This document shows, in pieces, positions 27,862-59,799 of a stretch of DNA of 64,000 nt; position 1 is the stretch's first letter; every line of letters begins with the position of its first letter. The DNA comes from an uncultured Sphingomonas sp. (lineage in GTDB: Bacteria > Pseudomonadota > Alphaproteobacteria > Sphingomonadales > Sphingomonadaceae). Under the pieces are notes generated by a model. The model made no database searches, had not been told where the DNA came from, and was given only the letters and a program-made list of their open reading frames with translations. Position numbers and translations under genes: made by a program. The DNA is taken from positions 15,636 to 79,635 of the forward strand of contig CAYUWJ010000044.1 of the NCBI GenBank assembly GCA_964448315.1, read 5' to 3'.

Positions 27862-29145
27862 ATGGCAAAGTTCCGCGATGTTTACGGCAACTCGGCCCAG
27901 ACCGGTTACACGATCGATTTTTTCACGCTGAACGCACCTGGAGCTAAAAACGCCTTTTTGGCCTGTCCCTTCTTCTCAACTTATGAGCCCGTCCGGAATT
28001 TGACCGAACGGGGCTGCGAGGTCCGGCTGCTCGTCAGGCTCTGCTCGATCACACCGCCGCCGGTCCTCAGGGAAGCGCTCAGTGATCGTCTGGTGACCAT
28101 CCGCTATTTCACCAGCCGGGAGTTCCACGCCAAGCTCTATATCGTTGATGACAATGCGCTGATCGGCTCCGCCAACCTCACCGTCTCGGGGCTTAACACC
28201 AACCGCGAGGTCTCAGTCGTCCTCAATCGCGAGCGGGATGCCTGCTTTGAGGAACTCCCCGGACTGTTCAACTGGTTCTGGGACTACGCCGACGTACTAA
28301 ACGAGGAAGTTCTCCAGGCGTATACCCTCGCGTTCCGCTCCATCGGCAGGCCGACCGAGGAGGCACAGTTTGAGAAGGAGCTGGGCCGGCATGTGCCGCT
28401 CGTCGCACCGCCCAGCGCGAAGGTCGGCAGCGACATTGTGTCAGCGAAGCGGTCGTTTCTCCAGAGCCTGCGCCGGAAATATGACGAGCAGCTGCTGCCC
28501 GCTTATGATGAGGTCCGAACTCAGTTCACGGCTGATGGCAGGCGCCGAGCCGAATATGGCGCCGGGGACCCGGAAATTGAAATCAACCGCTTTCTCGGGT
28601 GGAGTCGGCTGGTGCATGCACCTGGTGACAGCTGGAAGCAGACACCGCTGACTGACGGCGATGCGCGCGCTCTGAGAGTTCAGGCCATGATCGATGGCTG
28701 GCATTCAGCCGCGACCGTCGGCGCCGGAGACATGGTTGACGAGGACAGCGAGGTGGAGAAGATCGAGCGGCTGCGCTCCACTTTCAGCACGGCTGAAGGG
28801 ATCCGCGCGCTCGGTTACGACGATCTTTTCGACACGCTGACCTCCTGTCATGCATTTCTTGAGCTGCTCCGGTTCGTCAGCGGCGGGCTGAGCGGTCTTC
28901 GCAAGGACTTTGCCGAGCGCAACTCACTCAGCCGCATCCAGAACACGCTCGTGCATCTGCTGCACGGGCAAGGTACCTCGCTGGAACGTGCCTACGACTG
29001 CATCTTCAGCGAAAAGTACAAGCTGGGCAGGTTCGGAGAGTCCTGCGTAATGGAACTCATTGGGTGGATGGACCCGAAGCGCCCGCCGATCAACGGCCGG
29101 ACGATCAAGGCACTCCGCTTCTTCGGCTACGATGTGTCCGACTGA
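27862..29145 (+). CDS. single-HKD phospholipase D-family (Nuc-like) protein with a helical C-terminal domain
   Basis: One HKD motif, FHAKLYIVDDNALIGSANLTVSGLNTN. Starts 9 nt after the previous stop. 427 aa. Confidence 0.8.
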   Translation: MAKFRDVYGNSAQTGYTIDFFTLNAPGAKNAFLACPFFSTYEPVRNLTERGCEVRLLVRLCSITPPPVLREALSDRLVTIRYFTSREFHAKLYIVDDNALIGSANLTVSGLNTNREVSVVLNRERDACFEELPGLFNWFWDYADVLNEEVLQAYTLAFRSIGRPTEEAQFEKELGRHVPLVAPPSAKVGSDIVSAKRSFLQSLRRKYDEQLLPAYDEVRTQFTADGRRRAEYGAGDPEIEINRFLGWSRLVHAPGDSWKQTPLTDGDARALRVQAMIDGWHSAATVGAGDMVDEDSEVEKIERLRSTFSTAEGIRALGYDDLFDTLTSCHAFLELLRFVSGGLSGLRKDFAERNSLSRIQNTLVHLLHGQGTSLERAYDCIFSEKYKLGRFGESCVMELIGWMDPKRPPINGRTIKALRFFGYDVSD

Positions 29146-29365: not shown

Positions 29366-30604
29366 GTGCCCGACCGCCACTTGCCCTTCTCCGCCGCCTT
29401 CGCTCGATCCGGGATGTCGATGCCCGAGGCGGAACAGCGGCTGGGGGTGTCGGAGCGACAGATCCACCGCTACCTGTCCGGTGAATGCCCGCCGCCTAAG
29501 CTGGTCGATGAAAAGGTCCGCGAGATCGCAGGTGCCCGCAGTGCCGATCGGCCGGAGTCCGCATTTCGATTCATAGATCTGTTTGCCGGCATCGGCGGGC
29601 TGCGGCTGGGGTTCGAAGGCATCGGCGGCCGCTGCGTCTTCACCAGTGAATGGGACCGGTTCGCTCAGAAGACCTATCTCCGGAATTTCGCTGATGATGA
29701 CGACCACGTTATGACGGGCGACATCCGACCTTACGGCGCCGCCCCATCAAAGATTCCCGAGTTCGACGTTCTGCTCGCGGGCTTTCCGTGTCAGCCGTTC
29801 TCGCTGGCAGGTGTGTCCAAGAAGAACTCGCTCGGCCGGCTGCACGGCTTCGAGGACGAAAAGCAGGGCAACCTGTTCTTCGAGATCGAACGGATCCTGA
29901 GGCATCACCGGCCGCCCGCTTTCCTGCTCGAGAATGTGAAGCACCTCACTCGGCACGACAAAGGCAATACCTTCGAGGTGATCCGCCGAACGCTTGAAGA
30001 CGACCTGGGCTACGCAATTGATTACCGAATCATCAGTTCCGCACCGTGGGTGCCACAGAACCGTGAGCGCATCTTCATCGTCGGCTTCCGTCAGGACGTG
30101 GGCTTCTGTTTCGATGGGTTTGACGCTGTCATTCCGGAAGAGAAAAACTGGCCGCGGCTCGGCTCGATCCTTCAGAGCCACAATGAGGTCGATTCAAAAT
30201 ACACATTGACCCCAAAGCTCTGGGAGTACCTTCAGGCCTACCGCGCCAAGCATGAGAAAGCCGGCAACGGGTTCGGATACAGTCTTTTCGGAAAGGACGG
30301 GGTCACCCGCACCCTTTCAGCCCGTTACCACAAAGACGGGTCGGAGATACTGATTGAACAGAAGGACGCCCGCCCCCGCCGCCTCACGCCCACCGAGTGC
30401 GCGCGGCTGATGGGGTTTGAGCATGGGGAGCGCGCGTGGAATACCAGCGCGGTCTCCGACACCCAGGCATACCGCCAGTTTGGCAACGCCGTGGTGGTTC
30501 CCGTCGTTGAAGCGATCGCGCGCTACATGGAGCCGTCGCTGAAGAAGATGCTCGACATCGATCGAAAGGAGCGGAGTGGGACGAAGCGGCGAAAGGTTGC
30601 GTAA
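29366..30604 (+). CDS. dcm: DNA cytosine-5 methyltransferase, Dcm-like, with an N-terminal HTH
   Basis: FRFIDLFAGIGGLRLGFEGIGGRCVFTSEWD, DVLLAGFPCQPFSLAGVSKKNSLGRLHGF, FLLENVKHL, RRLTPTECARLMGFE and SDTQAYRQFGNAVVVPV are near-colinear with E. coli Dcm as I remember it. The start may be ATG at 29414. Confidence 0.92.
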   Translation: MPDRHLPFSAAFARSGMSMPEAEQRLGVSERQIHRYLSGECPPPKLVDEKVREIAGARSADRPESAFRFIDLFAGIGGLRLGFEGIGGRCVFTSEWDRFAQKTYLRNFADDDDHVMTGDIRPYGAAPSKIPEFDVLLAGFPCQPFSLAGVSKKNSLGRLHGFEDEKQGNLFFEIERILRHHRPPAFLLENVKHLTRHDKGNTFEVIRRTLEDDLGYAIDYRIISSAPWVPQNRERIFIVGFRQDVGFCFDGFDAVIPEEKNWPRLGSILQSHNEVDSKYTLTPKLWEYLQAYRAKHEKAGNGFGYSLFGKDGVTRTLSARYHKDGSEILIEQKDARPRRLTPTECARLMGFEHGERAWNTSAVSDTQAYRQFGNAVVVPVVEAIARYMEPSLKKMLDIDRKERSGTKRRKVA

Positions 30605-31049
30605 GCCCACTCCGGCCCGGAGCCGCAACATGGCGGCGATCCGGTCCGCCAATACCCGACCCGAACTGATCGTCCGGAGACTGCTGCATGCGGCTGGCTT
30701 CCGTTACCGCCTGCACCGCAGGGATCTTCCGGGCACCCCGGATCTGACCTTGGCAAAGTGGAACGCCCTCATTGAGGTGCATGGCTGTTTCTTCCACGCG
30801 CATGACTGCCATCTCGTCAGAAAGCCGCCTGGCGACAACGCTGAGTTCTGGTCCAGCAAGCTGAGTGCAAACGCCGCCAGGGACCGGAGGAACGCCGAAG
30901 CTGCGGCAGCACGGGGATGGCGGCGGCTCGTTATCTGGCAGTGCGCCGTTACCGGGAAAACCCGGCTTGATCAGGGCGACCTGCTTTCCCGCATTTCCGA
31001 CTGGCTTCACGGGACGGACCGCAGCAACGAGATACGCGGGAGCGACTGA
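30576..31049 (+). CDS. vsr: very-short-patch repair endonuclease
   Basis: RSRNMAAIRSANTRPELIVRRLL...PGTPDLTL...IEVHGCFFHAHDC...FWSSKLSANAARDRR...GWRRLVIWQCA matches Vsr. Its 5' end overlaps the dcm 3' end by 29 nt in another frame. Confidence 0.9.
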   Translation: MGRSGERLRKPTPARSRNMAAIRSANTRPELIVRRLLHAAGFRYRLHRRDLPGTPDLTLAKWNALIEVHGCFFHAHDCHLVRKPPGDNAEFWSSKLSANAARDRRNAEAAAARGWRRLVIWQCAVTGKTRLDQGDLLSRISDWLHGTDRSNEIRGSD

Positions 31050-31093: not shown

Positions 31094-32437
31094 ATGCCCG
31101 TCAGTACCATCTCAGAGCTGCAGCGTCTGTTCGCCAGCCAGGAAGTCCGGACGCTCTACGTCAAACATCTCGCGCAGAACCAGGATAACGACAAGAACCA
31201 GATCTATCTGGGCAAAGGTCTCGACGGCATCCTCAATCTGTTCCCGGCAAGGATCGTCGAACGTTCAGCGAGTGAGAGCGTCGCCAAGGCCCGGTCGAGC
31301 AGCGGCAAACCGAAACTTGAAGCACTGATCGATCTCGCCTGGATGAGCCACAACGGTCCTCTGGAGCGCGTCCCGGGCGCGCGTATCATCGACTACTTCC
31401 AGTATCCGGAAGCCCGTCTCTCAGGATTTCTGACCGGGTGCGACACCGCGCCCGATGCTCTGCGCCGCACCTCGCTGGCCAAGTACGGCAAGCGGATACT
31501 GGTTCTCGGAACGGCGCCATCCGGCACCGTTGTCGGCATGGTCCTGACCCAGCGTGACGATCCGCTGGTCGGCAACTTCCCCGAACTGCCTGTGCTCGCC
31601 GCGGTGCCGGTATTCCGGGTATTGTCGACAACAGCTGCAGCCGGCGTCGCACCACTCGACCTGCTGCTTGGTGAACTGCGCGCGATCGTTGCGGCCGGAT
31701 GGCACCCGTCTGTCATCCTGAAGAGAGGCGCAGCGGGGCCGGTTCCCTTCCGTGGCAATCAGGGCGCCGGCTACACGCTCGAAGCGCTGCTCGGCGTTCC
31801 TGCCAACGCCACCAAGGCGCCCGATGCCCACGGCTATGAGATCAAGAGCTACCGCGGCAGTCGCATCAGTCTGATGACCCCGGTCCCCGACGGGGGATTT
31901 CAGGGCGAGCGCAGTTTTCGCGAGTTCATGGCGCGCTATGGTCGGCAGGCAATCAAGGGCGACGGAAGCCGTCGCTTCACTGGTCTCCATCGCGTTGGGA
32001 AGGTCTGCAGTTCCACCGGGTTTGAGCTCCGCGTGAGTGGCTATGATGCGACATCTGACAGCTTCGACGCCGATCGCGGCATCGCAGTTGAAATGATTGT
32101 CCCTGCCACCGGTGAAATCGTCGCCTCCTGGTCACTCGAGCGGCTCGCAAACTCATGGAATGCTAAGCACGCCTCCGCCCTCTACCTCTTCGCTCAGGCG
32201 CAAGATGCTGGCGGAGAAGTCCAGTATCGCTATGCCTGTGAGGCACTCATTGGCGAAGGCACGGACGTGTTCCGTCTTCTGAGGGCAATCCACACCGGTC
32301 TGGTTTATTACGATCCCGCGGACAGCGTATATGCCAACGGAACTCAAAAGGTCCGACCGCAGTGGCGGATGTCGTCGGCCAATCTCGAGCGCACGATGGG
32401 GAAGCTTTACTCGAACGTGAGGCGCGTGGCGCTTTAG
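31094..32437 (+). CDS. putative type II restriction endonuclease (MvaI/BcnI-like catalytic half, extra N-terminal domain)
   Basis: The C-terminal half, GNQGAGYTLEALLGVPANATKAPDAHGYEIKSY...ISLMTPVPDGG, fits the MvaI/BcnI (MutH-like) pattern. The N-terminal LYVKHLAQNQDNDKNQIYLGKG resembles the EcoRII N-domain motif YIKRLSANDTG...GLYIP. Position next to dcm-vsr. Confidence 0.6.
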   Translation: MPVSTISELQRLFASQEVRTLYVKHLAQNQDNDKNQIYLGKGLDGILNLFPARIVERSASESVAKARSSSGKPKLEALIDLAWMSHNGPLERVPGARIIDYFQYPEARLSGFLTGCDTAPDALRRTSLAKYGKRILVLGTAPSGTVVGMVLTQRDDPLVGNFPELPVLAAVPVFRVLSTTAAAGVAPLDLLLGELRAIVAAGWHPSVILKRGAAGPVPFRGNQGAGYTLEALLGVPANATKAPDAHGYEIKSYRGSRISLMTPVPDGGFQGERSFREFMARYGRQAIKGDGSRRFTGLHRVGKVCSSTGFELRVSGYDATSDSFDADRGIAVEMIVPATGEIVASWSLERLANSWNAKHASALYLFAQAQDAGGEVQYRYACEALIGEGTDVFRLLRAIHTGLVYYDPADSVYANGTQKVRPQWRMSSANLERTMGKLYSNVRRVAL

Positions 32438-32618: not shown

Positions 32619-34445
32619 GTGTTCCAGCTAACTTTCCCTTGTGACGGCACAGTAGCGCGGGCCAGCATTTCGAAAGCCATCTTGGCTTTGGGCAAGCTTC
32701 AGCTATGCCTCGTTCAGCTGGACAAGCCACCAACCCCTGTGATTGCGGGCGATAAATCGCGCGCGAACGCCGTAGCCGTGATCCGTGACCTACTCGTTGG
32801 CAACGAGGCCCAGCCGATCCCGGCTCTCCGGGAGATGAACCCTGGCAACGTAATGGCCGTCATGCTGCTTCCGGAGCTGGCGTTGGGCTCACCGGACTGG
32901 GATGCCGTCGACGCCCTTGTTCGCGCCACAGACCGGCCACTCGTCCTGATTGCAGGGTTCGGCTTTTCACCGGGAAAGAGAGTCCTCGACTGGAAAGCGG
33001 CGCAGCCGGACGAGGGGACCGTGCGTCACGTTGGCTGGGAGGAGGGCGACGATCCAAGCAGCGTGATGCTGGTCAACGGCGCCTGGTGCTGGGTGCATTT
33101 TCCCGGGGAGCAAACGCACTGCGTCGTCACCTTGAAGAACAGCCAAGAGCAAAGCATCGAAGCCGTCGAATTTGCCCATGTGCAGCAAGGCAAGACGATC
33201 CTTCACCTGCAGTTCGACGACGTCGACTTATTTCCCCTCATCTGTTCCGACATGCTTCGCCTGCCCGAGGATAATGACGCGTCGGCCCAGGCCCGGGTGC
33301 GGCGATCCATTGCAGACGAAGACGATCCGGAACGTCCTGCGCTGATCCTCGGATCGCTGCTCCAGCCGCAGTATAACCCCAATTGGGAGGTTGCGATCGA
33401 TCGAGCGGTAAGTCACAGCCTAGCGGGCAGAAAGGGCGCTGTCGCGCTTTGCAACATCGCAATCAGCAAGTCCGAGGGTGATGAGGAGGTCGACCGCTGG
33501 CGTAGCCTGACCGGCGCTTATGTGCGGCTGTCTGAGCTATCCAGGGGCCAGCGAACGCTACCCGTCTGCCGTACACTCAAAGCTCCTGCAATCTCAGGCG
33601 CAGTCGCCCGGGTCACCACGGCGAGCGTTCATTCAGGGCCCGTTGGATGGCGGCCGTTCAACGTCATGGACGAGAACTTCGTCTGGCAGGGTAAGATGAA
33701 TGCCCGGATTGGCGCCACGGGCCTGGCCTTGCCACTCAAAGCGCCGGCGGCAATCGCGGCGACCGAGCTTCTCCGCTTTCTTGATCGTTTCCCGCCAGAT
33801 CCAGGGTTCGCGCCAAGGCTGAACGACGGTGTGCAGCAGCTGGCCGAGAGAGTGGAGAGCGGGCAGCGCCCGTCAGCCGAAGTCGTGATCAATACGGTGT
33901 TGCAAGGGACGATTGGCGAGCGTGTCGATCCTGACTGCCTCCACCCGCCCGCCGTGCAACAGGCCCTCAAGGCAGGATTGAACGCTCTGGCGACGCTGAA
34001 GTCGATCGAGTCCATCGGCTGGGAGGCTAATGCGTCGCAGACGGGTCAGTTGGTGACGGAATCGGGCATGAATGTGCTAGTGTGGCGGTCACCCGGTGAA
34101 AGCGGAAAGACAATGCGAAGACGGCTGTCGGTCTGGAAGCTGACGCCACAGATTCATCCAAAGCTGGTAGTGTTCGGCAGGGGCCCGGATACGGAGCTGC
34201 CGCAGGGAGAGATCAACGACGATCGCCGCGATGATTTCACGACCGCGCCGAAATCGAGTGCGGACCTTGAGGCGGCCGGCACGCTCCAAGCCAGCAATGA
34301 TGACTTCACTGCGACTCGCGTTGTTCGGCGCGTGGCCGGGTTGCCCCTGTCGCAGGCCGCCGCCCTCTATGCTGAATATGACGCGGCGGAGGACAAGGCG
34401 AAAGTCGACGCATTACTCGCTGCGATAGACGGGGCATTCCAATGA
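32619..34445 (+). CDS. candidate effector: N-terminal carbon-nitrogen hydrolase (nitrilase-superfamily)-like domain plus an unknown C-terminal half
   Basis: 608 aa. VMLLPELALG (Glu86, codon 32874-32876), VVTLKNSQEQ (Lys173, 33135-33137) and LFPLICSDMLRLPE (Cys209, 33243-33245). The order and spacing match the nitrilase E-K-C triad. First gene of a 3-gene overlapping operon. Confidence 0.55.
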   Translation: MFQLTFPCDGTVARASISKAILALGKLQLCLVQLDKPPTPVIAGDKSRANAVAVIRDLLVGNEAQPIPALREMNPGNVMAVMLLPELALGSPDWDAVDALVRATDRPLVLIAGFGFSPGKRVLDWKAAQPDEGTVRHVGWEEGDDPSSVMLVNGAWCWVHFPGEQTHCVVTLKNSQEQSIEAVEFAHVQQGKTILHLQFDDVDLFPLICSDMLRLPEDNDASAQARVRRSIADEDDPERPALILGSLLQPQYNPNWEVAIDRAVSHSLAGRKGAVALCNIAISKSEGDEEVDRWRSLTGAYVRLSELSRGQRTLPVCRTLKAPAISGAVARVTTASVHSGPVGWRPFNVMDENFVWQGKMNARIGATGLALPLKAPAAIAATELLRFLDRFPPDPGFAPRLNDGVQQLAERVESGQRPSAEVVINTVLQGTIGERVDPDCLHPPAVQQALKAGLNALATLKSIESIGWEANASQTGQLVTESGMNVLVWRSPGESGKTMRRRLSVWKLTPQIHPKLVVFGRGPDTELPQGEINDDRRDDFTTAPKSSADLEAAGTLQASNDDFTATRVVRRVAGLPLSQAAALYAEYDAAEDKAKVDALLAAIDGAFQ

Positions 34446-35035
34446 CCGAATCAGTCCCGAACGTAGAGGGGGCTCGCATGCAGCTCGGCGACCTGTGCGA
34501 AGCCGTAGGCCTGAGGCAGGTAGCAAAGCTTCCCTTGGTCGATAATGTCGATGCTCCCCCGGAGGGTGCGACTTTATGGCAGTCGTCTTATGCCATCGTT
34601 TTGCTCTGGCCCTGCCAAGCGAATTGCCTTGACGACATTGTAGGTGCGGTTGAGCGCGGGCAAAGCTGGTTCGACCTGGTGCTTTGCGCCGAAGAGGCGA
34701 AACGGGCAGGCCGCGTGGTGGACGGCTATTTGGTGCTGGCACTATCCCAAGCACCCTCGGCAGAGGCACGGGACGATGTCCGCAGGCTCGAGCTTTCTTC
34801 GCTGATCTGCCGGAAGCATTTGATCTGGCCCTCGACACCCGACGAAAACGACCACGAGCAAGGGCTGTGGCGGCGCGTTGCTGACGTGACCGTGGTTGGG
34901 CTGCCGGAGGTCGAGGTCCCGGCTACGGGCGATCTTCACTGGCCCATACTGGACGAGGATGCAAAAGCGCAGCTCGATGAACTGCAAAGGCTGGGCGTGC
35001 AGGGCTTGGTGATCAAGGACCGGGCGGGCCAATGA
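34442..35035 (+). CDS. small middle-component protein (unknown family)
   Basis: 197 aa. The start overlaps the upstream stop (ATGA) and the stop overlaps the downstream start (ATGA at 35032-35035). Confidence 0.6.
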   Translation: MTESVPNVEGARMQLGDLCEAVGLRQVAKLPLVDNVDAPPEGATLWQSSYAIVLLWPCQANCLDDIVGAVERGQSWFDLVLCAEEAKRAGRVVDGYLVLALSQAPSAEARDDVRRLELSSLICRKHLIWPSTPDENDHEQGLWRRVADVTVVGLPEVEVPATGDLHWPILDEDAKAQLDELQRLGVQGLVIKDRAGQ

Positions 35036-37899
35036 GGGGAATCCGCCTACACCGGATGATGGTTTCTGCGTTCCGTGGCATCGCCTGCCCGGTAGAGTTT
35101 GATCTGAGTTCGCCCCTGACCCTCGTGTTCGCTCCCAATGGCACGGGCAAAACGACCATGTGCGAGGCCGCCGAGTGGCTCCTCACGGGCCAGATCGAGC
35201 GGCTGAAGGAAGGGAAGGATTTCGACCCGGCGGAGCTCAGGTCAAAGTTCTACCTTGATCTCCAAACTCCAAATGTTTCCGCCGCGCTTCGTGTCGGCGC
35301 AGATGAGAAATACTTAGATCGAGCTGCGAAGGATCACGACATCCGGACGCTATTCGGCGAAACCCCCGAGACTGCCAAGGCTTGCAAGCCGCACGAGTTC
35401 CTATCGCTCCTTGCGCCCGCTGCGGCGGCCGACGAAGCGCATCACTTAACGGCGATCAACTTGCGTCAGCGATGGGTAAAGGGAACTCGGTTCCTGAGTT
35501 CCGACGCGCTGGCTGCCTTGGTCGACACCGATCCCGAAACCGTCGACCGCCGCAGGCAAATCTTCGCTGACGTCTTGGGCATCCGACATTTGCTCGATGC
35601 TGAGCGCCTTGCTGGCAAATACGCGGGCGAGCTGAAAACGCTGATCAACGCGCTCAACACGTCGATCGATCAGCAGGAGAGGGAGGTCAAAGACCTCGAA
35701 CAGTCGCTAGCTGGGATGGAGGAGCAGCGGCCGAACGCTGCGTCGGCTCGGTCCGAAGTCGACGCCGCACAAGACATCTTGGGTCCGGAAACGATCCCGG
35801 CTGGTCCCTCAAACAATACATCATCGATGGACGTCCTATTGGAGAGTCTGACGGTGGTTCATGGCCGCCGTCAGCATGAGCTTTCGGAACGCGCAGGTCT
35901 CCTAAACGAGATCGAGGCGCAATGGTCCACTCGCGCTCAACTGGAAGTAGCGGTCGCCGAGGGTCGCGAAACGGAAGCCAAACTAGCCTCTCGGCTGGCA
36001 GAGGTCGATACGGCTGGCCGAGCGGCGGCAGGTGTTATTGCGGAGAATGTCCAGCAGCGGGATGCTCGGCTGAGTGAATTGAACCGCTTGGCCGCGGCAC
36101 GGGATCTTCTCTCGAAGCGGGCTGTAACGTTGCTCGAAGCCGTCCAGAACCCCTTGATGGCGGGAGAATATCAAACAAGTCTGGCCAAGCTGTCGGAGTT
36201 GCTGCCGGAAGCGCGGTGGCCTGACGCGGAGCGAAGGAATCGCGAGAGCGAACTTTCGACGCTTGAAACGCAGTTGAGCTTCGTCGAGACGGAAGCTCCT
36301 CGCGCGGACCAAGTGAACAGGCAAATCTTGGACTTGTCCGAAAAGGCGTTGAGCGACGCGGATTACGCGCAGCTAGAAACGTCCGTTCAAAACGCCGAAG
36401 CCCAAGCCCGGTCCGCGCAGGCGGCGCTCGACGCCCTGCTTCAACCCGTCGACCGGATTCAGGCCGCGGCGAAGGAGCTACTAGCCCATGACCATGGCTT
36501 TGATACGCAGTATTGCCCTTTGTGCGCGGCGGATTGGAAGTCCGTCGATCGATTGAGAGCGGCGATCGAACAGGTGCTCCGGGGGACTCCGGAACTGGCT
36601 GCAACGGCCCGTGAAGCGTCGACCCAAGCAAACCAGCTGGCGGCGGACCTGAAAACACGACTCACGAACGCGAGGGCGTTTCGCGAGAAGCTGACCGCAC
36701 TCCGAACTGAAAGCGCTCAACTCCAGCAGCGAGTAGCGTGGACTTCGATTCAACTGGCGCGGGTTGGTGGCGCATCGGACCAACCAACGAAGACGCTGCC
36801 GATAGAGAGGGCTAAGTTGGCCGCGGCGGATGCGCTAGCGGCATTCATGCAGGCTTGGGCCGAGCATTCATCCCTCCTCACCGACCCAGACGAACGATTT
36901 GCGGACACCGTTATCGGCAATGTAATCCAGACCCTTGACGGCAAAGCGAGCCGCCGTGAACAGGATATCCAGTTCAACCTGGCGACTTTAACTAAATCGA
37001 TCGAAGAGGCTTCGGCCACCAGGGACAAACTTGCATCGGAGCATGCGTCATTGACGCAGCAGCTCACCGAATTGCGCCTCAGACTAGCCGAACAATCAGA
37101 GCAGCTCACGGCGTTCCATTCGAAGTGGGCGCAGTTGTCATCCGACCAACCGCCATCCAACGCAACGCTCGCGAAAATTCGCTCCTTCCTGCAAAGCGAG
37201 CGCGAGCGACTATCTAAGGCTGCTGCGCATATTGAGGCGGCAAGGTCAGCCTGGAGCCGGGAATCGAGGCGCTCTCGGCTCCAACAGCTGCGGCTATCCG
37301 TTGATCCCGAAGTCAAGCAGCGCGGCCGGCTTCAACAGCGCTTGCAGATCGCACAGCGGACGATGGCGGTGTTCAATCATGCCTGCACAACGATTAGCCG
37401 TAATCAGGTCGACGGCCTCAGCCGGGTCGTGAACCCATTATTTGCCAGGATGCACGCGAACCGAGTGTTTGACCGCATCAGCCTCGGCCAGGACACCGAC
37501 TTCCTCCATTGGCTCGCCAATGCGGGGGACGAGAAACTGGATCCAAGCAAACACTTCAGTCAGGGGCAACGGCAGGATCTAGCGCTTGCGCTGTTCCTGG
37601 CTCGCGCTCGCGGACTGGGTGGCACATTCTTCCTCGACGAACCGATCCTCCACCTCGACGACCTCAACCGGGTTGGTTTGCTGGATATTTTCAGGGCGTT
37701 TGTGCTCGAGCACCATCCAGCACTCAACCTAGTGATCACGACTTCGAGCCGGACGCTGGCGCGGCATATGATCGAGAAGTTTGCTGCCGTCAGTCCGATC
37801 GACGCTTCGGACGAGGGGACGCCACCGCTGAGGGTTCTCGAAATGGAGGGCAACGGTCGCGACGGGGTGGAGGTACGTCAAGCTTACCCCATACAATAA
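35032..37899 (+). CDS. Rad50/SbcC/SMC-like ABC ATPase with a central CxxC hook
   Basis: N-terminal Walker A LVFAPNGTGKTTMCEAAEWLLTG. About 750 aa of coiled coil. CPLC at about residue 494 of 955 (nt about 36511-36537). C-terminal signature/Walker B FSQGQRQDLALALFLARA...FFLDEPILHLDD. Confidence 0.85.
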   Translation: MRGIRLHRMMVSAFRGIACPVEFDLSSPLTLVFAPNGTGKTTMCEAAEWLLTGQIERLKEGKDFDPAELRSKFYLDLQTPNVSAALRVGADEKYLDRAAKDHDIRTLFGETPETAKACKPHEFLSLLAPAAAADEAHHLTAINLRQRWVKGTRFLSSDALAALVDTDPETVDRRRQIFADVLGIRHLLDAERLAGKYAGELKTLINALNTSIDQQEREVKDLEQSLAGMEEQRPNAASARSEVDAAQDILGPETIPAGPSNNTSSMDVLLESLTVVHGRRQHELSERAGLLNEIEAQWSTRAQLEVAVAEGRETEAKLASRLAEVDTAGRAAAGVIAENVQQRDARLSELNRLAAARDLLSKRAVTLLEAVQNPLMAGEYQTSLAKLSELLPEARWPDAERRNRESELSTLETQLSFVETEAPRADQVNRQILDLSEKALSDADYAQLETSVQNAEAQARSAQAALDALLQPVDRIQAAAKELLAHDHGFDTQYCPLCAADWKSVDRLRAAIEQVLRGTPELAATAREASTQANQLAADLKTRLTNARAFREKLTALRTESAQLQQRVAWTSIQLARVGGASDQPTKTLPIERAKLAAADALAAFMQAWAEHSSLLTDPDERFADTVIGNVIQTLDGKASRREQDIQFNLATLTKSIEEASATRDKLASEHASLTQQLTELRLRLAEQSEQLTAFHSKWAQLSSDQPPSNATLAKIRSFLQSERERLSKAAAHIEAARSAWSRESRRSRLQQLRLSVDPEVKQRGRLQQRLQIAQRTMAVFNHACTTISRNQVDGLSRVVNPLFARMHANRVFDRISLGQDTDFLHWLANAGDEKLDPSKHFSQGQRQDLALALFLARARGLGGTFFLDEPILHLDDLNRVGLLDIFRAFVLEHHPALNLVITTSSRTLARHMIEKFAAVSPIDASDEGTPPLRVLEMEGNGRDGVEVRQAYPIQ

Positions 37900-38226: not shown

Positions 38227-39156
38227 CTATGTGAGCCTCACGCGCCTACCGAGGTGTGTGCTCCAAAGTCCCAGACGCTTTATACGGTAGTCGACCAGCT
38301 CCGTCGAAGTGCCAAACTGCTCAGCTATCTCCTGTGTACTCCTCTTTTGCTCAACTGCCTTGATCATTGCTGTTCGCGGTAAGAGGGTGGCCGACGCTAA
38401 ATAATAGGCGTCGTGCTCTTCGGCAGAGTCGTACGTCCTGCCGTACGCATCCGCGACTTTCGATATCTTAGTTAGCTTATGCCCCGACAGAATGTGCCAG
38501 TATTCCTCCAGAAGCGTGACACGTTGCCTTTCAATGGTATGACAATCGTTTAGTAACACCGCCCACTTGTCGAATGCAGCGGTCAGCGGGACACTCATGG
38601 CTGACCACTGCGAACAGGCCTCGCCTACAAGCCTTCGTTTGGCGTCGGGATCCAAGCACTTCGAAGCGGTGATGCGCTCAATCCTTACGCCATCGACTAC
38701 AAGACGTAGCGGGTCGAGAGGATCTGATAAGTTCAGACCCAGATCATGTCGGAATCGTTGCGCAGTGAGTTCAAGCTCTTCCTTTGACGAGCCCCCTGCC
38801 GTCGGCTCGCCAGTTACGGTCGGCCTGGCTGCCTCCACTTCATCCGGATATTCTCGCTTGAGGCATTCGGCCGCATGGAGGAGAGCTTTGATTGTCCGCG
38901 ATTGAGCGTTCTTTCCGGCGCGAAAGTGAACGAGCGCGACATTCTCAAAGCCGAGCCCCGCGTCGTCGGCCCTACTTCCCAGCCACTCTAGGAGCCGAAT
39001 CTTCGAGTTATTGTCCGGTGAGCCTTCCCCACGCTCGATACGAGCCAGTGTCGAGAAACTTACGCCAATTTTCGCCGACAAGGCTCGTATACTCAGGCCC
39101 TTTTCGGAACGCTTCTCCCTGACTGCGCTTACGAGTTTTGTATCGAACTCTTCCAT
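38227..39156 (-). CDS. XRE-family HTH regulator fused to an ImmA/IrrE-like domain (metal motif degenerate)
   Basis: N-terminus KGLSIRALSAKIGVSFSTLARIERGEGSP is an XRE HTH. The C-terminal half has VTLLEEYWHILSGH where M78 peptidases have HExxH, so the first His is replaced by Glu. Confidence 0.7.
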   Translation of the reverse strand: MEEFDTKLVSAVREKRSEKGLSIRALSAKIGVSFSTLARIERGEGSPDNNSKIRLLEWLGSRADDAGLGFENVALVHFRAGKNAQSRTIKALLHAAECLKREYPDEVEAARPTVTGEPTAGGSSKEELELTAQRFRHDLGLNLSDPLDPLRLVVDGVRIERITASKCLDPDAKRRLVGEACSQWSAMSVPLTAAFDKWAVLLNDCHTIERQRVTLLEEYWHILSGHKLTKISKVADAYGRTYDSAEEHDAYYLASATLLPRTAMIKAVEQKRSTQEIAEQFGTSTELVDYRIKRLGLWSTHLGRRVRLT

Positions 39157-39397
39157 TTTCCCCCGAGCGTGCGATACGCACGCATTGACACGCCCCGTTG
39201 GGCATGCATCCTCGTGCTAGTGACACAGATTCGCACATCGACAGGCAAATTGGAAGTGTTGTTGAGCAGCGATGCGCGGACTGAGTTGCAGCGAATTGGC
39301 GATGGTTTGGACGCGCGCCAGCTCGTCAGGGTGAAAGGTGGGGGTGTCGTTATCCTCGATCCGCAGCCTGCCTCAACAACCGTCCAGGAGCAAAACA

Positions 39398-39541
39398 ATG
39401 AGCAACGACAAAGAGCGCGAGGATCCGCAGCCCGGTCACTGCAAGGGTCCGCCCGACGACAAGGGTCGTCCGGTCGATCCCGGTCGTCCGGTGCCCAACC
39501 ACGGGTCGTCGGCCTCGCCGGCAACTACGCCCGGCAATTAG
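39398..39541 (+). CDS. possible small Pro/Gly-rich ORF
   Basis: ATG at 39398 is preceded by AGGAG with a 7-nt spacer. Third-codon positions are mostly G/C in this frame and A-rich in the overlapping long frame. 47 aa: MSNDKEREDPQPGHCKGPPDDKGRPVDPGRPVPNHGSSASPATTPGN. Confidence 0.3.
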   Translation: MSNDKEREDPQPGHCKGPPDDKGRPVDPGRPVPNHGSSASPATTPGN

Positions 39542-39546
39542 AAGAT

Positions 39547-40227
39547 GTGCACGGGGCATATCCCGACGCAACCTTCCTCCCCGATGAGCACGGGGTATGG
39601 CTTCTCGCGCGCAGCCGCATCTTGGACGGCCTAGCGCGAGAAGCCATATTTCTCATCGCGCTGCCAAACACGCCGGACGTTGATCCGCGCGGATGGGCAT
39701 TTTGGGCCCAAGACGGGCAGATCGAATGGATTGGCCCGCGACACACCAACTTCACTGATGGTTCGGTGTGCGCCTACCATCCGAAACTCGACAACGCATG
39801 GTCCCCCGGAGACGATCTTCGCACGCTGCTGGATATTTACAGCGTTTGGGCGCTCCGACACCTACACTTGGCAGTCCTCGACCGCTGGCCGGGTCGGCAG
39901 TATGCGATGCCCGACGACGCTGGCCGCTCCGATCCCTATTACCGATTGCTCCAGTTCGAGCCAGCCGAACTTTGCAGCTGTGGCACGGATCGGCGGTATG
40001 GAGAGTGCTGCCGGCCGGGTGACCTCACGCTACCGCTCCTTTCGATCAAAGCCGCCTTCGAAAGGCGTAACAGTGGCCGTAGCATTCATGATCGCGCACC
40101 ACCTCCCGCGATAGCAGCCTTCGTGACGAGCGGTGGACAAAACGCCGCTCCTTCAATCTTCGAAGTTCACGCGCACCTTCGGGCGCACGCCGAGCGCAAC
40201 GGGTGCAAGCGCGAGAGTAATCGTTGA
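39547..40227 (+). CDS. E2/UBC-like domain protein fused to a SEC-C metal-binding motif (start uncertain)
   Basis: PRHTNFTDGSVCAYHPKLDNAWSPGDDLRTLLDIYSVWAL aligns by eye with the eukaryotic E2 core [36 protein letters not shown]. The C-terminal CSCGTDRRYGECC is a SEC-C motif. The frame is open back to 39169. GTG at 39547 was chosen because the upstream part has poor GC3. Confidence 0.5.
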   Translation: MHGAYPDATFLPDEHGVWLLARSRILDGLAREAIFLIALPNTPDVDPRGWAFWAQDGQIEWIGPRHTNFTDGSVCAYHPKLDNAWSPGDDLRTLLDIYSVWALRHLHLAVLDRWPGRQYAMPDDAGRSDPYYRLLQFEPAELCSCGTDRRYGECCRPGDLTLPLLSIKAAFERRNSGRSIHDRAPPPAIAAFVTSGGQNAAPSIFEVHAHLRAHAERNGCKRESNR

Positions 40228-40589: not shown

Positions 40590-41804
40590 GTGGCGGACGA
40601 AATTCTCTTCAACAAATTCGAACTCGATCGGGTGGTAGAGAACCATCGCTCTTCGATGCTATCGGAGCTGGACCGCATGGCAGACGACCGTCTGCTGAAT
40701 ACCGACATCGCAGGTCTGGAAGACTATTGTTTCAACAAGTTCTCGTTGGACTTCCCTGAGCTAGGCGAGCCGCGCGTCGACAATGCTCGGACGAAAATGA
40801 CTGTCGGCCGCTATGGCGGCTTCGACTATGGGCACGGCAGCGTGGAAGTCGACGCGGAGCGCTTTACGCTGGAGGTGCCGTTTACCGGCGACAAGGCCCT
40901 TTTTCTCAGCCGCGCGAATACATGGAGTTCGAATCCGCCTTACGGTACCGTACGGGACGGCCTTCTCAGCTACACCGTGGTGGAGCGCGACCCGTCCAGC
41001 GACAAGCTGAACCACGAGTTTGATCGCTTTCTAACGAACGTGAAGCAGCATCTGGGCTGGCAGAAGCCGACGGTAGAAGGTTGGAATAGCAGATTGAAAG
41101 GGTTGGTCCGCGACCATATTTCGGAACGCAGGAGCCGCCTCGAAAAGACAACTAGCGTTGCGTCGGGTCTGAAGTTCGCAATGAAATACCGGCGCGATGC
41201 CGCGGCGACGTTTTCAGCTCCGGTTACCCCGAAGAGAATTGCCCCTGTCCTGCCGCCTCCCAAGCCGGGCGCAACGCCAGAGCCGGTGCTGACGCCTGAG
41301 GCTTACCGGGACATCTTGGACACCCTTCAACAGATGTCGGAGGTGATGGAGCGGAGCCCCCATGCTTACGCTGGCATGGATAAGGAAACGCTGAGGTTCC
41401 AATTCCTCGTGCCACTAAATGCGCGCTTCGAAGGTGAGGCGCGGGGCGAGGTGTTCAACTACGGCGGCAAGACCGACATCCTCATCACATACAAGGGGAA
41501 GAACATCTTCATTGCCGAGTGCAAGATTTGGAAGGGCGCTTCGGCGCTGACGGAAGCCATTGACCAGCTGCTCGGCTACTTGAGCTGGCGCGACACCAAG
41601 ACCTCGTTGATGATCTTCAATCGGAATAAGGGCTTCAGCGCAGTCCTCGACCAAATTGACCCCACCGTCCGGGCGCATCCGAACTTTGTGTTTGCTGACG
41701 GCAAAAGGGGAGAGACCGAGTTCCAATACACCTTCCATCATCGCGACGACCCCGGCCGGAAGCTGACGCTTACGGTGCTGGCGTTCGATATGCCTGCTGA
41801 GTGA
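40590..41804 (+). CDS. hypothetical protein with a C-terminal PD-(D/E)xK nuclease-like domain
   Basis: GTG at 40590 after AGGAG with a 6-nt spacer. The C-terminal GGKTDILITYKGKNIFIAECKIWKGASALTEAIDQLLGYL shows the D...E-x-K pattern. Confidence 0.6.
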   Translation: MADEILFNKFELDRVVENHRSSMLSELDRMADDRLLNTDIAGLEDYCFNKFSLDFPELGEPRVDNARTKMTVGRYGGFDYGHGSVEVDAERFTLEVPFTGDKALFLSRANTWSSNPPYGTVRDGLLSYTVVERDPSSDKLNHEFDRFLTNVKQHLGWQKPTVEGWNSRLKGLVRDHISERRSRLEKTTSVASGLKFAMKYRRDAAATFSAPVTPKRIAPVLPPPKPGATPEPVLTPEAYRDILDTLQQMSEVMERSPHAYAGMDKETLRFQFLVPLNARFEGEARGEVFNYGGKTDILITYKGKNIFIAECKIWKGASALTEAIDQLLGYLSWRDTKTSLMIFNRNKGFSAVLDQIDPTVRAHPNFVFADGKRGETEFQYTFHHRDDPGRKLTLTVLAFDMPAE

Positions 41805-43870: not shown

Positions 43871-44107
43871 ATGGCAGCCTCAACAAAGCCTCGAACGAAG
43901 TCAGCGACGGTCACCCGCCTCCTCTCACGCGAGAAGGGCGCAACGCTCGACGAAATTGCGAAGGCGACCGAGTGGAAACCGCACAGCTGTCGCGCCTTTC
44001 TCACCGGCATACGTAAGAAAGCGCGCGTGCTGCGGCAGGAACGCCCCGATGGGGCAACCAGCTATCGGATTGTTCAGAAGCCCGCCCCGGATTCGGCCAG
44101 TGAGTAG
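43871..44107 (+). CDS. DUF3489-like protein
   Basis: TKSATVTRLLSREKGATLDEIAKATEWKPHSCRAFLTGIRKK...SYRI fits the DUF3489 pattern usually found upstream of DUF2924 and a serine recombinase. Confidence 0.7.
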   Translation: MAASTKPRTKSATVTRLLSREKGATLDEIAKATEWKPHSCRAFLTGIRKKARVLRQERPDGATSYRIVQKPAPDSASE

Positions 44108-44543
44108 TTTCGAGCGGAAGCTGGCGGAACTTGGTGGCATGACGCCCGCCCAGCTTCGGGCCGAGTGGAGAGACTGCTGGCGTAAACCGGCACCGGAGAT
44201 TGGTCCCGACCTGCTGCGTCGAGGAATCGCATGGAAGAGACAGTCCCGCATTCACGGAGACCTCCCGCCCCATGTCCGGCGGGAGATCGAGGCTGTTCTC
44301 ACTCGCGTGAGTGCCGGCAAGTCTCCCATTAACGACGAGCGTATCTCACTTAGGCCCGGAACCAGGCTGGTGCGCGAATGGCGCGGTACGATGCACCAGG
44401 TGGTAGTGCTTGAACGCGGGTACGAGCATGAGGCCCGGCACTACAGCAGTCTCACTCAGGTCGCTTCGGCCATAACGGGTGCCCACTGGTCGGGACCGCG
44501 CTTCTTCGATCTCAAAACGCGGAGGGCGCCGCGGAAGCCATGA
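44100..44543 (+). CDS. DUF2924-like protein
   Basis: GTG at 44100 overlaps the previous stop. LRAEWRDCWRKPAPEIGPDLLRRGIAWKRQ ... RPGTRLVREWRGTMHQVVVLERGYEHEARHYSSLTQVASAITGAHWSGPRFFDLK. Confidence 0.7.
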   Translation: MSSFERKLAELGGMTPAQLRAEWRDCWRKPAPEIGPDLLRRGIAWKRQSRIHGDLPPHVRREIEAVLTRVSAGKSPINDERISLRPGTRLVREWRGTMHQVVVLERGYEHEARHYSSLTQVASAITGAHWSGPRFFDLKTRRAPRKP

Positions 44544-46114
44544 CGCCGAAGCGCTGCGCCATTTACACACGCAAGTCGACCGAAGAAGGGCTGGAGCAGG
44601 CGTTCAACAGCCTCGACGCACAGCGCGAAGCCTGTGCGGCCTACATCCTCAGCCAGGCTCATGAGGGCTGGGAACAGATCCACGAGCACTATGACGATGG
44701 CGGCTGGTCCGGCGGCAACATGGACCGGCCGGGGCTAAAACAGCTGCTTGCGGATGTGGCCGCCGGCAAGGTCGATGTGATCGTCGTCTACAAGGTGGAC
44801 AGGCTGACCCGCACCCTGGCTGACTTCGCCCGCATCGTGGACACTCTCGATAAAGCCGGCGCCTCGTTCGTGAGCGTAACCCAGGCGTTCAATACGACGA
44901 ACAGCATGGGCAGGCTGACGCTGAACGTGCTGCTTTCCTTCGCGCAGTTCGAGCGGGAGGTCACAAGCGAACGCATCCGGGACAAGGTCGCTGCCTCGAA
45001 GAAGAAGGGCATATGGATGGGCGGCCCGGTGCCGCTCGGATACAGGCTGGGCGACCGCAAGCTGCTCATGGACGACGATGAGGCGGAGATCGTCCGCTCA
45101 ATCTTCCGGCGGTACACAGAGCTGCGATCAGTGACCAAGCTCGTCGAAGAGCTCGCGCAACAGAACGTCAGGACCAAGGTTCGGCAGTACAGCAACGGTC
45201 GCACCGCCGGCGGTGTGCACTTCCAGCGTGGCTCATTGTCTCAGCTGCTGCAGAATCCGATCTACATCGGGAAGGTGAGCTATCGTGGCGAGCTGTACGA
45301 GGGAGAACATGAAGCCATAATCGGTCCAGATGACTGGGCCGAGGTCCAGCGCATCCTCGCTGCAAATCGCCATGACCGAAAGCTTGGCAAGCAGACGCGA
45401 TACCCAAGTCTGCTGACCGGAATGATCAGCGATCCTGACGGACGGCCGATGACACCCGCGTCCACGCATAAGGGCAGCCGACGGCATCGCTATTATGTCA
45501 CGAGGTTGAAGGCAGGTGAGGACAACGAACTTGCCTGGCGAGTGCCGGCAGGCGAGCTCGACAGAGCAGTGATGTCTGCAGTTTGCGACTGGCTGAGGTC
45601 GCATGAACGTCCCTGCGAACCTGGGCAGCTCATGTCTGACCGCGAGCTTGCCAACGAACTCCCCGACTTCTCAGTCCCTGGGCAGCGCAAGGTCCTGATC
45701 GAACTTGCAATGAAGGTGCAACTCGGAAAGACGGAGCTGTACATCCGGATCGGTGACGAGGCTCATCGTGTGATCAGCTTGCCCGTCCGGATGGTCCGTC
45801 GTGGAACTGAGCTGAAAGTGGTTCTGGAGAGCGGCGACCCTCAGCGAGCTCCGGACCCCGTGCTTCTCAAACTGGTCGCATTGGCGATCAGCGCGCGAAA
45901 GTCGCTCTTCTCCAGCAAAGCCGATCAGCTGACCTCCCACTACAGCAAGCGGCACCTTTGGCAGCTTCTCCGGATCAGCTTCCTGGCTCCGGATATCGTT
46001 ACCGCCATCGTTGAAGGGCGTCAGCCGCCCTCACTGACAGGTCGCCGGCTGCTGCGGGTCACTGACCTGCCGCTCGACTGGGCCGGGCAGCGGCGCGTTC
46101 TTGGGTTCAGCTAG
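44540..46114 (+). CDS. large serine recombinase
   Basis: RCAIYTRKSTEEGLEQAFNSLDAQ, VIVVYKVDRLTRT, then a recombinase domain. The start overlaps the DUF2924 stop (ATGA). The C-terminal tail is homologous to that of the recombinase at 9206-10969. Confidence 0.9.
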   Translation: MTPKRCAIYTRKSTEEGLEQAFNSLDAQREACAAYILSQAHEGWEQIHEHYDDGGWSGGNMDRPGLKQLLADVAAGKVDVIVVYKVDRLTRTLADFARIVDTLDKAGASFVSVTQAFNTTNSMGRLTLNVLLSFAQFEREVTSERIRDKVAASKKKGIWMGGPVPLGYRLGDRKLLMDDDEAEIVRSIFRRYTELRSVTKLVEELAQQNVRTKVRQYSNGRTAGGVHFQRGSLSQLLQNPIYIGKVSYRGELYEGEHEAIIGPDDWAEVQRILAANRHDRKLGKQTRYPSLLTGMISDPDGRPMTPASTHKGSRRHRYYVTRLKAGEDNELAWRVPAGELDRAVMSAVCDWLRSHERPCEPGQLMSDRELANELPDFSVPGQRKVLIELAMKVQLGKTELYIRIGDEAHRVISLPVRMVRRGTELKVVLESGDPQRAPDPVLLKLVALAISARKSLFSSKADQLTSHYSKRHLWQLLRISFLAPDIVTAIVEGRQPPSLTGRRLLRVTDLPLDWAGQRRVLGFS

Positions 46115-51396: not shown

Positions 51397-51401
51397 TTGA
51401 G

Positions 51402-51408
51402 CCTCCTT
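51402..51408 (-). promoter_or_regulatory. Shine-Dalgarno AAGGAGG for the kinase gene
   Basis: The reverse complement of cctcctt at 51402-51408 is AAGGAGG. It lies 5 nt upstream of ATT and 8 nt upstream of CTG, both in the kinase frame. Confidence 0.5.
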
Positions 51409-51603
51409 CGTTGAAGAACTCGATAGAAGCAGATCTCTGCACGAAGGATGGTGCGACGGACTCGCTGAAGCAAGCACGTAGTAGCTGTGGTGAGGATCGA
51501 TTAGCCGCTGAGAGCGCAGTAAACGCTTGCCCGTCCAATGCCGAGCTCTGGATATCACCTGTATTACCCCAGGCTCTAGCCGGGCGCCTAGGATTGGCCG
51601 AAA

Positions 51604-51667
51604 GCGCCCGCTTTCCACGCAACCTGGATGACGCGCTAGTGTCCGTTTTCGACCCATTGCAGTCACT
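51604..51667. repeat. REP-like bipartite repeat, copy 2
   Basis: gcgcccgctttccacgcaacctggatgacgcgctagtgtccgttttcgacccattgcagtcact. Near-identical to 47417-47480. Confidence 0.85.
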
Positions 51668-58140: not shown

Positions 58141-58216
58141 TGGTGCCGCTTAGGTGACTCGAACACCTGACCCCATCATTACGAATGATGTGCTCTACCA
58201 GCTGAGCTAAAGCGGC
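58141..58216 (-). tRNA. tRNA-Thr (anticodon CGT)
   Basis: The reverse complement folds as GCCGCTT-TA-GCTC-AGCTGGTA-GAGC-A-CATCA-TTCGTAA-TGATG-GGGTC-AGGTG-TTCGAGT-CACCT-AAGCGGC-A-CCA. 76 nt, all four stems pair, and CCA is encoded. Confidence 0.9.
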
Positions 58217-59697: not shown

Positions 59698-59799
59698 ATT
59701 TTCCCGGCCCAGCGAGCGACTTCCCAAGGTCGTGCTTGTCGCGGTGAGGGACGCACGGCTATAGGCCGCCGCCAGCAGCATGGCGGAGCGAATAATAGT

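Follow-up and report, generated by a model that had tools for sequence, protein, structure and literature searches.

A Lamassu/ABC-3C operon with a putative nitrilase-superfamily effector in a defence island of an uncultured Sphingomonas sp.

Which chemistry does a Lamassu-like operon use when its effector gene carries the Glu-Lys-Cys pattern of a carbon-nitrogen (C-N) hydrolase? The question is raised by a three-gene operon at positions 32619 to 37899 of a 64,000-nucleotide stretch of DNA (contig CAYUWJ010000044.1; the whole stretch is called the window below) from an uncultured Sphingomonas sp. A sequence-only reading of the window had described this operon as similar to the Lamassu and ABC-three-component (ABC-3C) systems, and had ascribed a nitrilase-type catalytic triad to its first protein. 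Our results suggest that the operon is probably an anti-phage (and probably anti-plasmid) Lamassu/ABC-3C system of the long kind, whose effector is a C-N hydrolase of the nitrilase superfamily. The ATPase, the effector's C-terminal domain (CTD) and the gene order support its place in the Lamassu/ABC-3C family, and the chemistry of the effector appears not to have been described yet for that family.

All three genes are encoded on the forward strand. According to the list of open reading frames (ORFs), the first gene (32619..34445) has a GTG start and encodes the LmuA-like effector of 608 aa; in the Pfam matches and the AlphaFold2 (AF2) model, the protein begins with a domain of nitrilase fold, which a beta-rich connector joins to the ABC-3C domain CTD3. 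The second gene (34442..35035), in the position of LmuC, encodes a middle component of 197 aa. The third (35032..37899) encodes an LmuB-like ATP-binding cassette (ABC) ATPase of the Rad50/SbcC type, 955 aa long with a long coiled coil, as judged from its ORF and its PADLOC and Pfam matches. Both junctions (34442-34445 and 35032-35035) read ATGA, as had been noted, so that each stop codon overlaps the start of the next gene. A protein identical to the effector (P0001) is called on public contigs. The gene calls of an identical contig place the start of the middle gene 12 codons downstream (185 aa, window position 34478), and the overlapping start is the one used in most relatives. A promoter and terminator scan gave nothing beyond the chance level.

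The motifs of the effector were found as the sequence-only reading had given them, namely LLPELAL at residues 83-89 with E86, TLKNSQEQ at residues 171-178 with K173 and FPLICSDMLRLPE at residues 205-217 with C209. Among 106 relatives at 19-45% identity, Glu86 (codon 32874..32876, motif LLPE, the predicted catalytic base) is kept in 106, Lys173 (33135..33137, motif TLKN, the predicted catalytic lysine) in 105 and Cys209 (33243..33245, motif FPLICSD, the predicted nucleophile) in 105. A fourth residue of this site, which was missing from the earlier triad, is Glu181 (33159..33161), the predicted second catalytic glutamate, conserved in 101 of the 106; it stands eight residues after the lysine (Lys+8), which is the position of the second glutamate in the nitrilase superfamily. 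The near-invariance across these relatives indicates that the Glu-Lys-Cys pattern is not a chance match. The spacing from Glu to Lys, from Lys to the second Glu and from Lys to Cys is 87, 8 and 36 residues in the effector, and 65, 9 and 34 in E. coli YafV.

The predicted structure agreed with this pattern. The AF2 model of the effector, built from 33 homologues and no templates, reached a mean predicted local distance difference test score (pLDDT) of 87 and a predicted template modelling score (pTM) of 0.86. When the model was searched against PDB with Foldseek, the 19 best matches all belonged to the nitrilase superfamily (E=5.8e-6 to 0.15), the first 12 of them with a Foldseek probability of 1.00, and beyond these the list continued with unrelated folds at E>0.2. 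The matches included the glutaminase domains of NAD+ synthetases (3n05, 5kha and 4f4h), yeast Nit2 (4hg3), aliphatic amidases (2plq, 2uxy and 4kzf), the formamidase AmiF (2e2k), N-carbamoylputrescine amidohydrolase (5h8k) and Nit6803 (3wuy), and they place the core of the fold at about residues 20-300 (32676..33518). In the model, Glu86 follows the strand 80-83, Lys173 stands at the end of the strand 166-172 and Cys209 lies at the elbow between the strand 203-208 and the helix 209-212, which we take to be the canonical nitrilase positions. The proposal that the order, local context and spacing of these residues resemble a C-N hydrolase triad was thus borne out by the near-invariant tetrad, the fold match and the register with YafV described below. 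Taken together, the model and the fold search support an alpha-beta-beta-alpha sandwich of the nitrilase superfamily for the N-terminal domain, and Glu86, Lys173, Glu181 and Cys209 are predicted to form its nitrilase-type catalytic site.

Several results weigh against a nitrilase identity. The Foldseek TM-scores of the model were moderate, 0.40-0.47 on target length. No model of Pfam, NCBIfam or PADLOC matched the N-terminal domain of the window protein; the Pfam family CN_hydrolase (PF00795) was absent at E<=1 for this protein and was found in 0/66 of its relatives at E<=0.01. Sequence searches of PDB with the protein and with the family profile also retrieved no nitrilase. The similarity to nitrilases is structural (Foldseek E=6e-6) and does not extend to sequence profiles, in which PF00795 is missing and the profile alignment with hhalign stays at the level of shuffled controls. 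For that alignment, the C-N hydrolase template was a profile of YafV orthologues at >=75% identity together with PDB sequences from alignments, and it was shallow, with an effective number of sequences (Neff) of ~3. In local mode, a shallow query left the lysine one position off (P=0.013). With a query of 106 sequences, the four tetrad residues came into register with E42, K107, E116 and C141 of YafV over 157 columns (P=0.0013-0.0016), and the best local stretch set the Cys209 motif against LPLVCYD of YafV. However, the score of 30.2 was reached by 30 block-shuffled controls (up to 30.3). As these controls score equally high, the score was not counted as evidence, and the co-linearity of the tetrad alone is informative in this result. 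The global mode returned a nonsense alignment.

A further sequence link comes from the relatives. The PADLOC model of the nitrilase associated with reverse transcriptases (RTs), RTasNitrilase, matched the effector domain in two of the 66 relatives (E=1e-4); in P0256, the match covers residues 331-420, which lie within the nitrilase-like domain. The same model did not match the effector of the window. At the level of sequence, this match in the relatives is one independent bridge to the nitrilases.

The C-terminal part of the effector, about 300 aa, had been called unknown, and this had to be corrected. It contains a described Pfam domain, PF20395 (CTD3), at residues 383-545 (33765..34253), with E=1.8e-46; it scores 158.6 bits (cut-off 28) and spans positions 1-161 of the 162 in the profile. 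CTD3 was present in all 34 full-length homologues of the effector from the word search. In the AF2 model, this region has helices at 379-461 and strands at 466-521 and 572-576, and its disordered loop (536-568) is the sole segment of the effector with pLDDT <50. The loop is opened by the acidic stretch NDDRRDDF (residues 533-540; 34215..34238), in which R537 and D539 are nearly invariant. CTD3 is predicted to serve as the docking and oligomerisation module of the effector.

The ATPase carries the motifs that the sequence-only reading had listed, each at its given residue of the 955-aa protein. The Walker A motif FAPNGTGKTT occupies residues 33-42 with Lys40 (35128..35157), the ABC signature FSQGQRQ residues 842-848 (37555..37575), and the Walker B and D-loop FFLDE-P-ILHLDD (FFLDEPILHLDD) residues 866-877 (37627..37662). 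About 800 residues rich in A, E, L, Q, R and K separate the Walker A from the signature and Walker B, giving a split head. The zinc-hook motif CPLC, at the apex of the coiled coil, is indeed near the middle of the protein and is the only copy (residues 495-498 of 955, midpoint 478; 36514..36525). The Walker A reads APNGTGKT, with Ala at the first Gly of Gx4GK[S/T]. The canonical Walker B position is FFLDE with Asp-Glu, and the literal hhhhDD (ILHLDD) follows six residues on, at the D-loop. These features are largely shared by the related loci: A[PA]NGxGKT is kept in nearly all of them (L028 and L029 do not match), a mid-protein CPxC, normally the sole CxxC, occurs in every related ATPase that covers the region, and FFLDEP is kept in all loci that reach the Walker B, with FILDEP in one locus.

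The best library matches of the ATPase were four PADLOC LmuB models (E=5e-30, 1.2e-28, 7.6e-25 and 8.8e-19), and Pfam returned AAA_23 and SMC_N. The NCBIfam scan gave SMC-related, SMC, Rad50 and RecF matches, every one far under its curated cut-off, and SbcC was not among the models matched. A sequence search of PDB chains found no match at 1e-3. With the LmuB models best and no SbcD/Mre11-type calcineurin-like phosphoesterase detected by Pfam in the operon, the ATPase is not an SbcC paired with SbcD, in agreement with the earlier assignment.

The middle component is the least defined of the three proteins. No model of Pfam, PADLOC or NCBIfam matched its 197 aa, as expected from the earlier remark that it had no recognised motif. 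Its homologues form 65 clusters, all labelled 'hypothetical'. Its AF2 model (pLDDT 84) is an alpha/beta protein, for which a Foldseek search against PDB gave no confident match (best E=0.01) and did not retrieve the SbcD C-terminal domain. Neither its sequence nor its fold corresponds to a described LmuC or MC family, which counts against the proposed reading of the operon. Its position and size are as for LmuC/MC, and it is kept in 27/27 loci. The weak fold matches (E=0.03-0.9) were enriched for restriction-endonuclease-like folds, including MspJI, BglII, R.BspD6I, Bse634I, XisH and R2 RLE, and are too weak to interpret. D78, D94, E117 and K125 are invariant in the middle component family.

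The effector has few homologues: they formed 36 clusters in the word search, and 184 representatives at E<=1e-3 came from an exhaustive HMMER search among 1.84 billion sequences. When 185,579 species genomes were scanned, 28 related loci were obtained, with a sporadic distribution. In all 27 loci with downstream DNA, the effector gene is followed by a gene for a small protein and then by one for a hook-bearing ATPase. The second protein has ~135-205 aa, mostly ~176-205 (in one locus, its longest ORF reaches 253 aa), and the ATPase has ~920-975 aa in the loci with a clear start; the junctions are usually overlapping. Most of the hosts belong to the Alpha-, Beta- and Gammaproteobacteria, with one metagenome-assembled genome of Victivallales, and the neighbourhoods of these loci are unrelated to each other. 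One of the operons (L007) lies on plasmid p2A1 of Thauera sp. 2A1, and an identical copy (L006) stands on another contig of that assembly.

A fourth ORF of ~456-468 aa follows the ATPase gene in L003 (13155-14561), L029 (5852-7249) and L021 (11362-12732), within a few bases in L003 and L029 and at ~70 nt in L021. It thus occurs in Methylobacteriaceae and in one other locus; the L003 product has a weak TPR_19 match. The ORF may be an accessory gene; the window lacks it.

The proposal of a Lamassu/ABC-3C-like operon is upheld by the LmuB matches, the CTD3 of the effector, the constant gene order and the adjoining restriction-modification (R-M) system. In PADLOC, the LmuB models match and those for LmuA and LmuC do not. 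Current detection tools would probably miss this effector and middle component for that reason.

About ten effector relatives (~10%), with lengths of 680-950 aa, carry an additional domain before the nitrilase-like module. By Pfam, this head is Trypsin_2 in P0250, P0256, P0305 and P0327, Mrr_cat in P0251 and P0253 and caspase in P0348; in P0268, P0274 and P0347, it has no assignment. The PADLOC LmuA models match the headed relatives in their heads only. The Mrr-headed P0251 is encoded on the same chassis, with a middle component 36% identical to that of the window (E=8e-20) and an ATPase 33% identical over the full length (E=6e-95) in which FSQGQRQ is identical. The nitrilase-like domain and CTD3 thus form the common body of the clade. 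The catalogued Mrr and Protease effectors of long Lamassu thus probably contain an unrecognised nitrilase-like domain.

The headed relatives also raise the alternative that the nitrilase-like domain is not the killer but a regulatory, sensing or assembly module of the long-LmuA clade. Such a module might bind or process a small molecule or enforce oligomerisation, and the headless systems would owe their toxicity to another source or would act in sensing only. The position of the domain between a Trypsin_2, Mrr_cat or caspase head and CTD3, on a shared chassis, is in line with this idea. So is the full tetrad in 6/10 headed relatives, which counts against a killing function because a domain kept intact beside another effector could serve a different role. 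A Lamassu clade that 'lost the effector domain' has moreover been reported (bioRxiv 10.1101/2025.04.02.646746). On the other hand, the near-invariance of the tetrad across 19-45% identity argues for catalysis over a scaffold. Degenerate tetrads, with forms including EKRC, EKQC, ERQC and EKDG, were found in 4/10 headed and 1/96 headless effectors (Fisher P=2e-4, not phylogenetically corrected), and four of the five exceptions at E181 are in headed proteins. Such a concentration would be expected if the nitrilase site does the work when it is the only effector and turns dispensable, as redundant domains do, after a further effector has been gained. The nitrilase domain is also the proven effector in the RT system DRT1, and in ~90% of the window's effector family the nitrilase-like domain is the sole enzymatic domain besides the ATPase. 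We consider it unlikely that the domain is only such a module.

A broader view of the same data can be offered tentatively, and we would call it possible and not probable. The nitrilase module may be the catalytic core of the whole CTD3 clade of long Lamassu, passing for a 'linker' in the Mrr- and protease-headed subtypes and acting as the only effector of the headless form, which is the commoner one. It would then be an oligomerisation-gated C-N hydrolase that destroys an essential metabolite with an amide or amine group (NAD+, glutamine or asparagine, or a nucleotide), or a protein deamidase, and would represent a second independent recruitment of nitrilases to immunity after DRT1.

The N-terminal domain could also belong to another alpha-beta-beta-alpha superfamily, as a remnant of SbcD/Mre11 or an EEP-type nuclease, and act on DNA. 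Lamassu has been proposed to derive from SbcCD, with LmuC coming from the SbcD C-terminal domain, the nitrilase HMMs miss the window effector, and the low-ranking Foldseek matches include the EEP-fold structures 4f1r and 8ka5 and the calcineurin-like 3tgh. These matches have E=0.5-1.1 and a probability of <=0.08, in contrast to E=6e-6 and 1.00 for nitrilases. In addition, the invariant Glu, Lys, Glu and Cys differ from the His and Asp that bind metal in Mre11 and EEP enzymes, the tetrad is in register with YafV by hhalign, and a defence nitrilase HMM matches the domain in relatives. On the Foldseek ranks and the nature of the tetrad residues, we rejected this nuclease reading as very improbable. 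That the operon is a housekeeping or repair machine of the SbcC/Rad50 kind, for which a canonical FFLDE Walker B, a zinc hook, a long coiled coil and weak NCBIfam SMC and Rad50 matches could be cited, is scarcely credible and was rejected, as those matches fall far under their cut-offs while LmuB models reach E=5e-30, the SbcD/Mre11 partner is absent from the operon, the loci, 28 among the 185,579 species genomes, are patchy in taxonomy and lie in mobile contexts that include a plasmid, and the operon of the window lies between serine recombinases and adjoins an R-M system.

The surroundings of the operon in the window are those of a defence island. Upstream, on the same strand as the operon, are genes for an NgoFVII-like nuclease of the PLD family (27862-29145), a C5 cytosine methyltransferase (Dcm; 29366-30604), a Vsr mismatch endonuclease (30576-31049) and, directly upstream of the effector gene, an MvaI/BcnI-family restriction endonuclease (31094-32437). 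The methyltransferase, Vsr and MvaI/BcnI genes make up a type II R-M system that includes a very-short-patch repair gene of its own. The defence region is bracketed by two large serine recombinases with Resolvase and Recombinase domains, one at 9206-11044 on the reverse strand and one at 43956-46114 on the forward strand, the latter preceded by a DUF2924 gene. The bracketing recombinases suggest a mobile element of ~35 kb that carries defence genes. The setting of the operon is thus that of a defence island, apparently carried by a mobile element, and not that of a repair locus.

Within the island, a protein of 763 aa that starts with a patatin-like phospholipase domain (18063-20354, forward strand) may be a further defence effector. 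Convergent with the ATPase gene is an HTH_XRE gene with an M78 (ImmA/IrrE-like) peptidase domain (38227-39156, reverse strand), and divergent from it is a 352-aa ORF without a Pfam match (39169-40227, forward strand) that ends in the Cys-rich CSCGTDRRYGECC; the two look like a separate pair of regulator and partner. ARAGORN called a 'tRNA-???' with a four-base anticodon at 41339-41417 on the forward strand, within a 404-aa ORF (40590-41804), which is probably a false positive. Farther out, the window holds a terminase large-subunit-like gene (832-2397, forward strand), a gene for a 1402-aa RHS-repeat protein (3045-7253, reverse strand) and a Ser/Thr kinase gene fused to tetratricopeptide (TPR) repeats (49915-51666, reverse strand), which indicate more mobile or conflict-related cargo around the island. 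A tRNA-Thr (CGT) gene is located at 58141-58216 on the reverse strand, and beyond it the G+C content rises from ~0.58-0.60 to 0.66-0.69 (59000-62000). This region may mark where acquired DNA meets the host backbone.

In the solved Lamassu complexes, LmuB2-LmuC sequesters a monomeric LmuA, senses DNA ends and releases LmuA in an ATP-dependent manner, and oligomerisation driven by the CTD then activates LmuA. The authors of that work ask whether non-nuclease effectors share this activation by release and oligomerisation. According to PMC7616060, homo-oligomerisation is required for nitrilase activity, and a nitrilase-fold effector fits the logic of sequestration, release and oligomerisation for this reason. 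For the system of the window, we infer by analogy with these complexes the stoichiometry of the complex, its trigger, the activation by oligomerisation, the catalysis, the substrate class and the phenotype as follows. A dimer of the ATPase, joined at the CPLC zinc hook, and the middle component would hold one effector through CTD3 and its acidic loop. The effector would be kept monomeric in the resting complex, and it would be silent there because nitrilase-fold enzymes are active only as homo-oligomers. On sensing foreign DNA (free DNA ends or intermediates of replication) and cycling ATP, the ATPase and the middle component would let the effector go. Once free, it would oligomerise, and the site formed by Glu86, Lys173, Glu181 and Cys209 would become competent to hydrolyse a C-N bond of an essential metabolite or protein bearing an amide or amine. 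The infected cell would be arrested or killed, that is, abortive infection would follow.

Lamassu systems are found in ~15% of prokaryotic genomes, and to our knowledge their activation logic has been solved for the Cap4 nuclease only. If the proposal is correct, the killing chemistry of Lamassu extends from the cleavage of DNA, NAD+ or protein to the hydrolysis of C-N bonds. We found no literature that links Lamassu, LmuA or ABC-3C to a nitrilase or C-N hydrolase, in a coverage that did not include Krishnan et al. 2020, which defined ABC-3C and CTD3 and may already mention an effector of this type. If a DefenseFinder subtype 'Lamassu-Amidase' exists and has the fold described here, the effector is less novel. 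The novelty that had been claimed for such an effector accordingly appears to hold for Lamassu but not for nitrilase effectors as such, for which DRT1 and UG5 are a precedent. We know of no other defence nitrilases than those two, and their substrates are not known to us. In the DRT1 study, the absence of a precedent is emphasised. A second sensor, unrelated to RT, on the same enzyme class offers a simpler handle on the substrate of defence nitrilases: if our reading holds, three proteins and no RT-made DNA adduct would be a simpler system in which to find it. The data also suggest that the catalogued Mrr and protease effectors of long Lamassu carry an unrecognised second catalytic domain.

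Among known systems, the SbcCD repair nuclease differs from the operon by its calcineurin-like phosphoesterase, of which Pfam found none among the three proteins. The metabolic nitrilases, such as the aliphatic amidase, the Nit2/omega-amidase YafV, AmiF and the glutaminase of NAD+ synthetase, resemble the effector in predicted fold, in how the tetrad residues are ordered and spaced, and in the local motifs xxPE, xK and xxCxD at the nucleophile elbow. The sequence similarity lies below HMM detection, and the domain of the window is ~100 residues larger, has invariant motifs of its own family (GFG, NGxWCWxH and DxWR), and is fused to CTD3 in a defence operon.

DRT1 (UG1) and UG5/DRT11 are alike in that a nitrilase-superfamily domain with a Glu-Lys-Glu-Cys tetrad is the abortive-infection effector there; RTasNitrilase weakly matches the domain in the window family, as noted for two of its 66 members. 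In DRT1, the monomer of this effector was neither protective nor toxic, and the substrate was unidentified in that study. The system of the window differs in having no RT (none was found in the operon or its flanks), no DNA adduct and no transmembrane partner, and an SMC-like ATPase takes the place of the sensor. It thereby departs from the RT-associated defence nitrilases (DRT1/UG1, UG5 and UG6), in which the nitrilase domain is fused to a UG/Abi RT or encoded beside one. As the RTasNitrilase model misses the window protein, the operon looks like a separate recruitment from that of DRT1 and UG5.

The type II (short) Lamassu or DdmABC of Vibrio cholerae, of which ABC-3C is the earlier name, follows the same three-component logic. 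There, VcLmuA carries CTD7 and VcLmuC is MC3, whereas the window has CTD3 and a middle protein that matches no family. The short LmuB has ~600 aa and the Vibrio protein lacks a hook, in contrast to the 955 aa and the CPLC motif of the window ATPase, and DNA is cut there by a Cap4 nuclease as the effector. The chains of the solved Lamassu structures have no detectable sequence similarity to the window ATPase.

The closest comparison is with long Lamassu, as described in bioRxiv 10.1101/2025.04.02.646746. In that description, LmuB has ~800 aa with exactly one CxxC, as opposed to ~600 aa in the short form; LmuC is longer and structurally similar to the SbcD C-terminal domain; the CTD of LmuA has helices, a beta-sheet and an acidic loop predicted to bind LmuB; and the motif definitions are Gx4GK[S/T] for Walker A and hhhhDD for Walker B. 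The window differs in its nitrilase-fold head, the listed heads being Cap4, Mrr, Protease, Sir2, FMO, HNH, SMEK and Lipase, to none of which the window effector has a Pfam or PADLOC match. It differs as well in the PADLOC LmuA and LmuC models that miss its proteins, in an ATPase of 955 aa against ~800, in FFLDE followed by ILHLDD against a plain hhhhDD, and in a middle component model without a match to the SbcD C-terminal domain. The two agree in the order of effector, small protein and ATPase, in the setting in a defence island, in an ATPase well over 600 aa with a single CxxC hook, and in an effector CTD built of helices, a beta-sheet and an acidic loop. The Hydrolase-Protease system of B. 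cereus B4077 is a long Lamassu with experimental validation, and the chassis of the window is common to relatives that have Mrr or trypsin heads.

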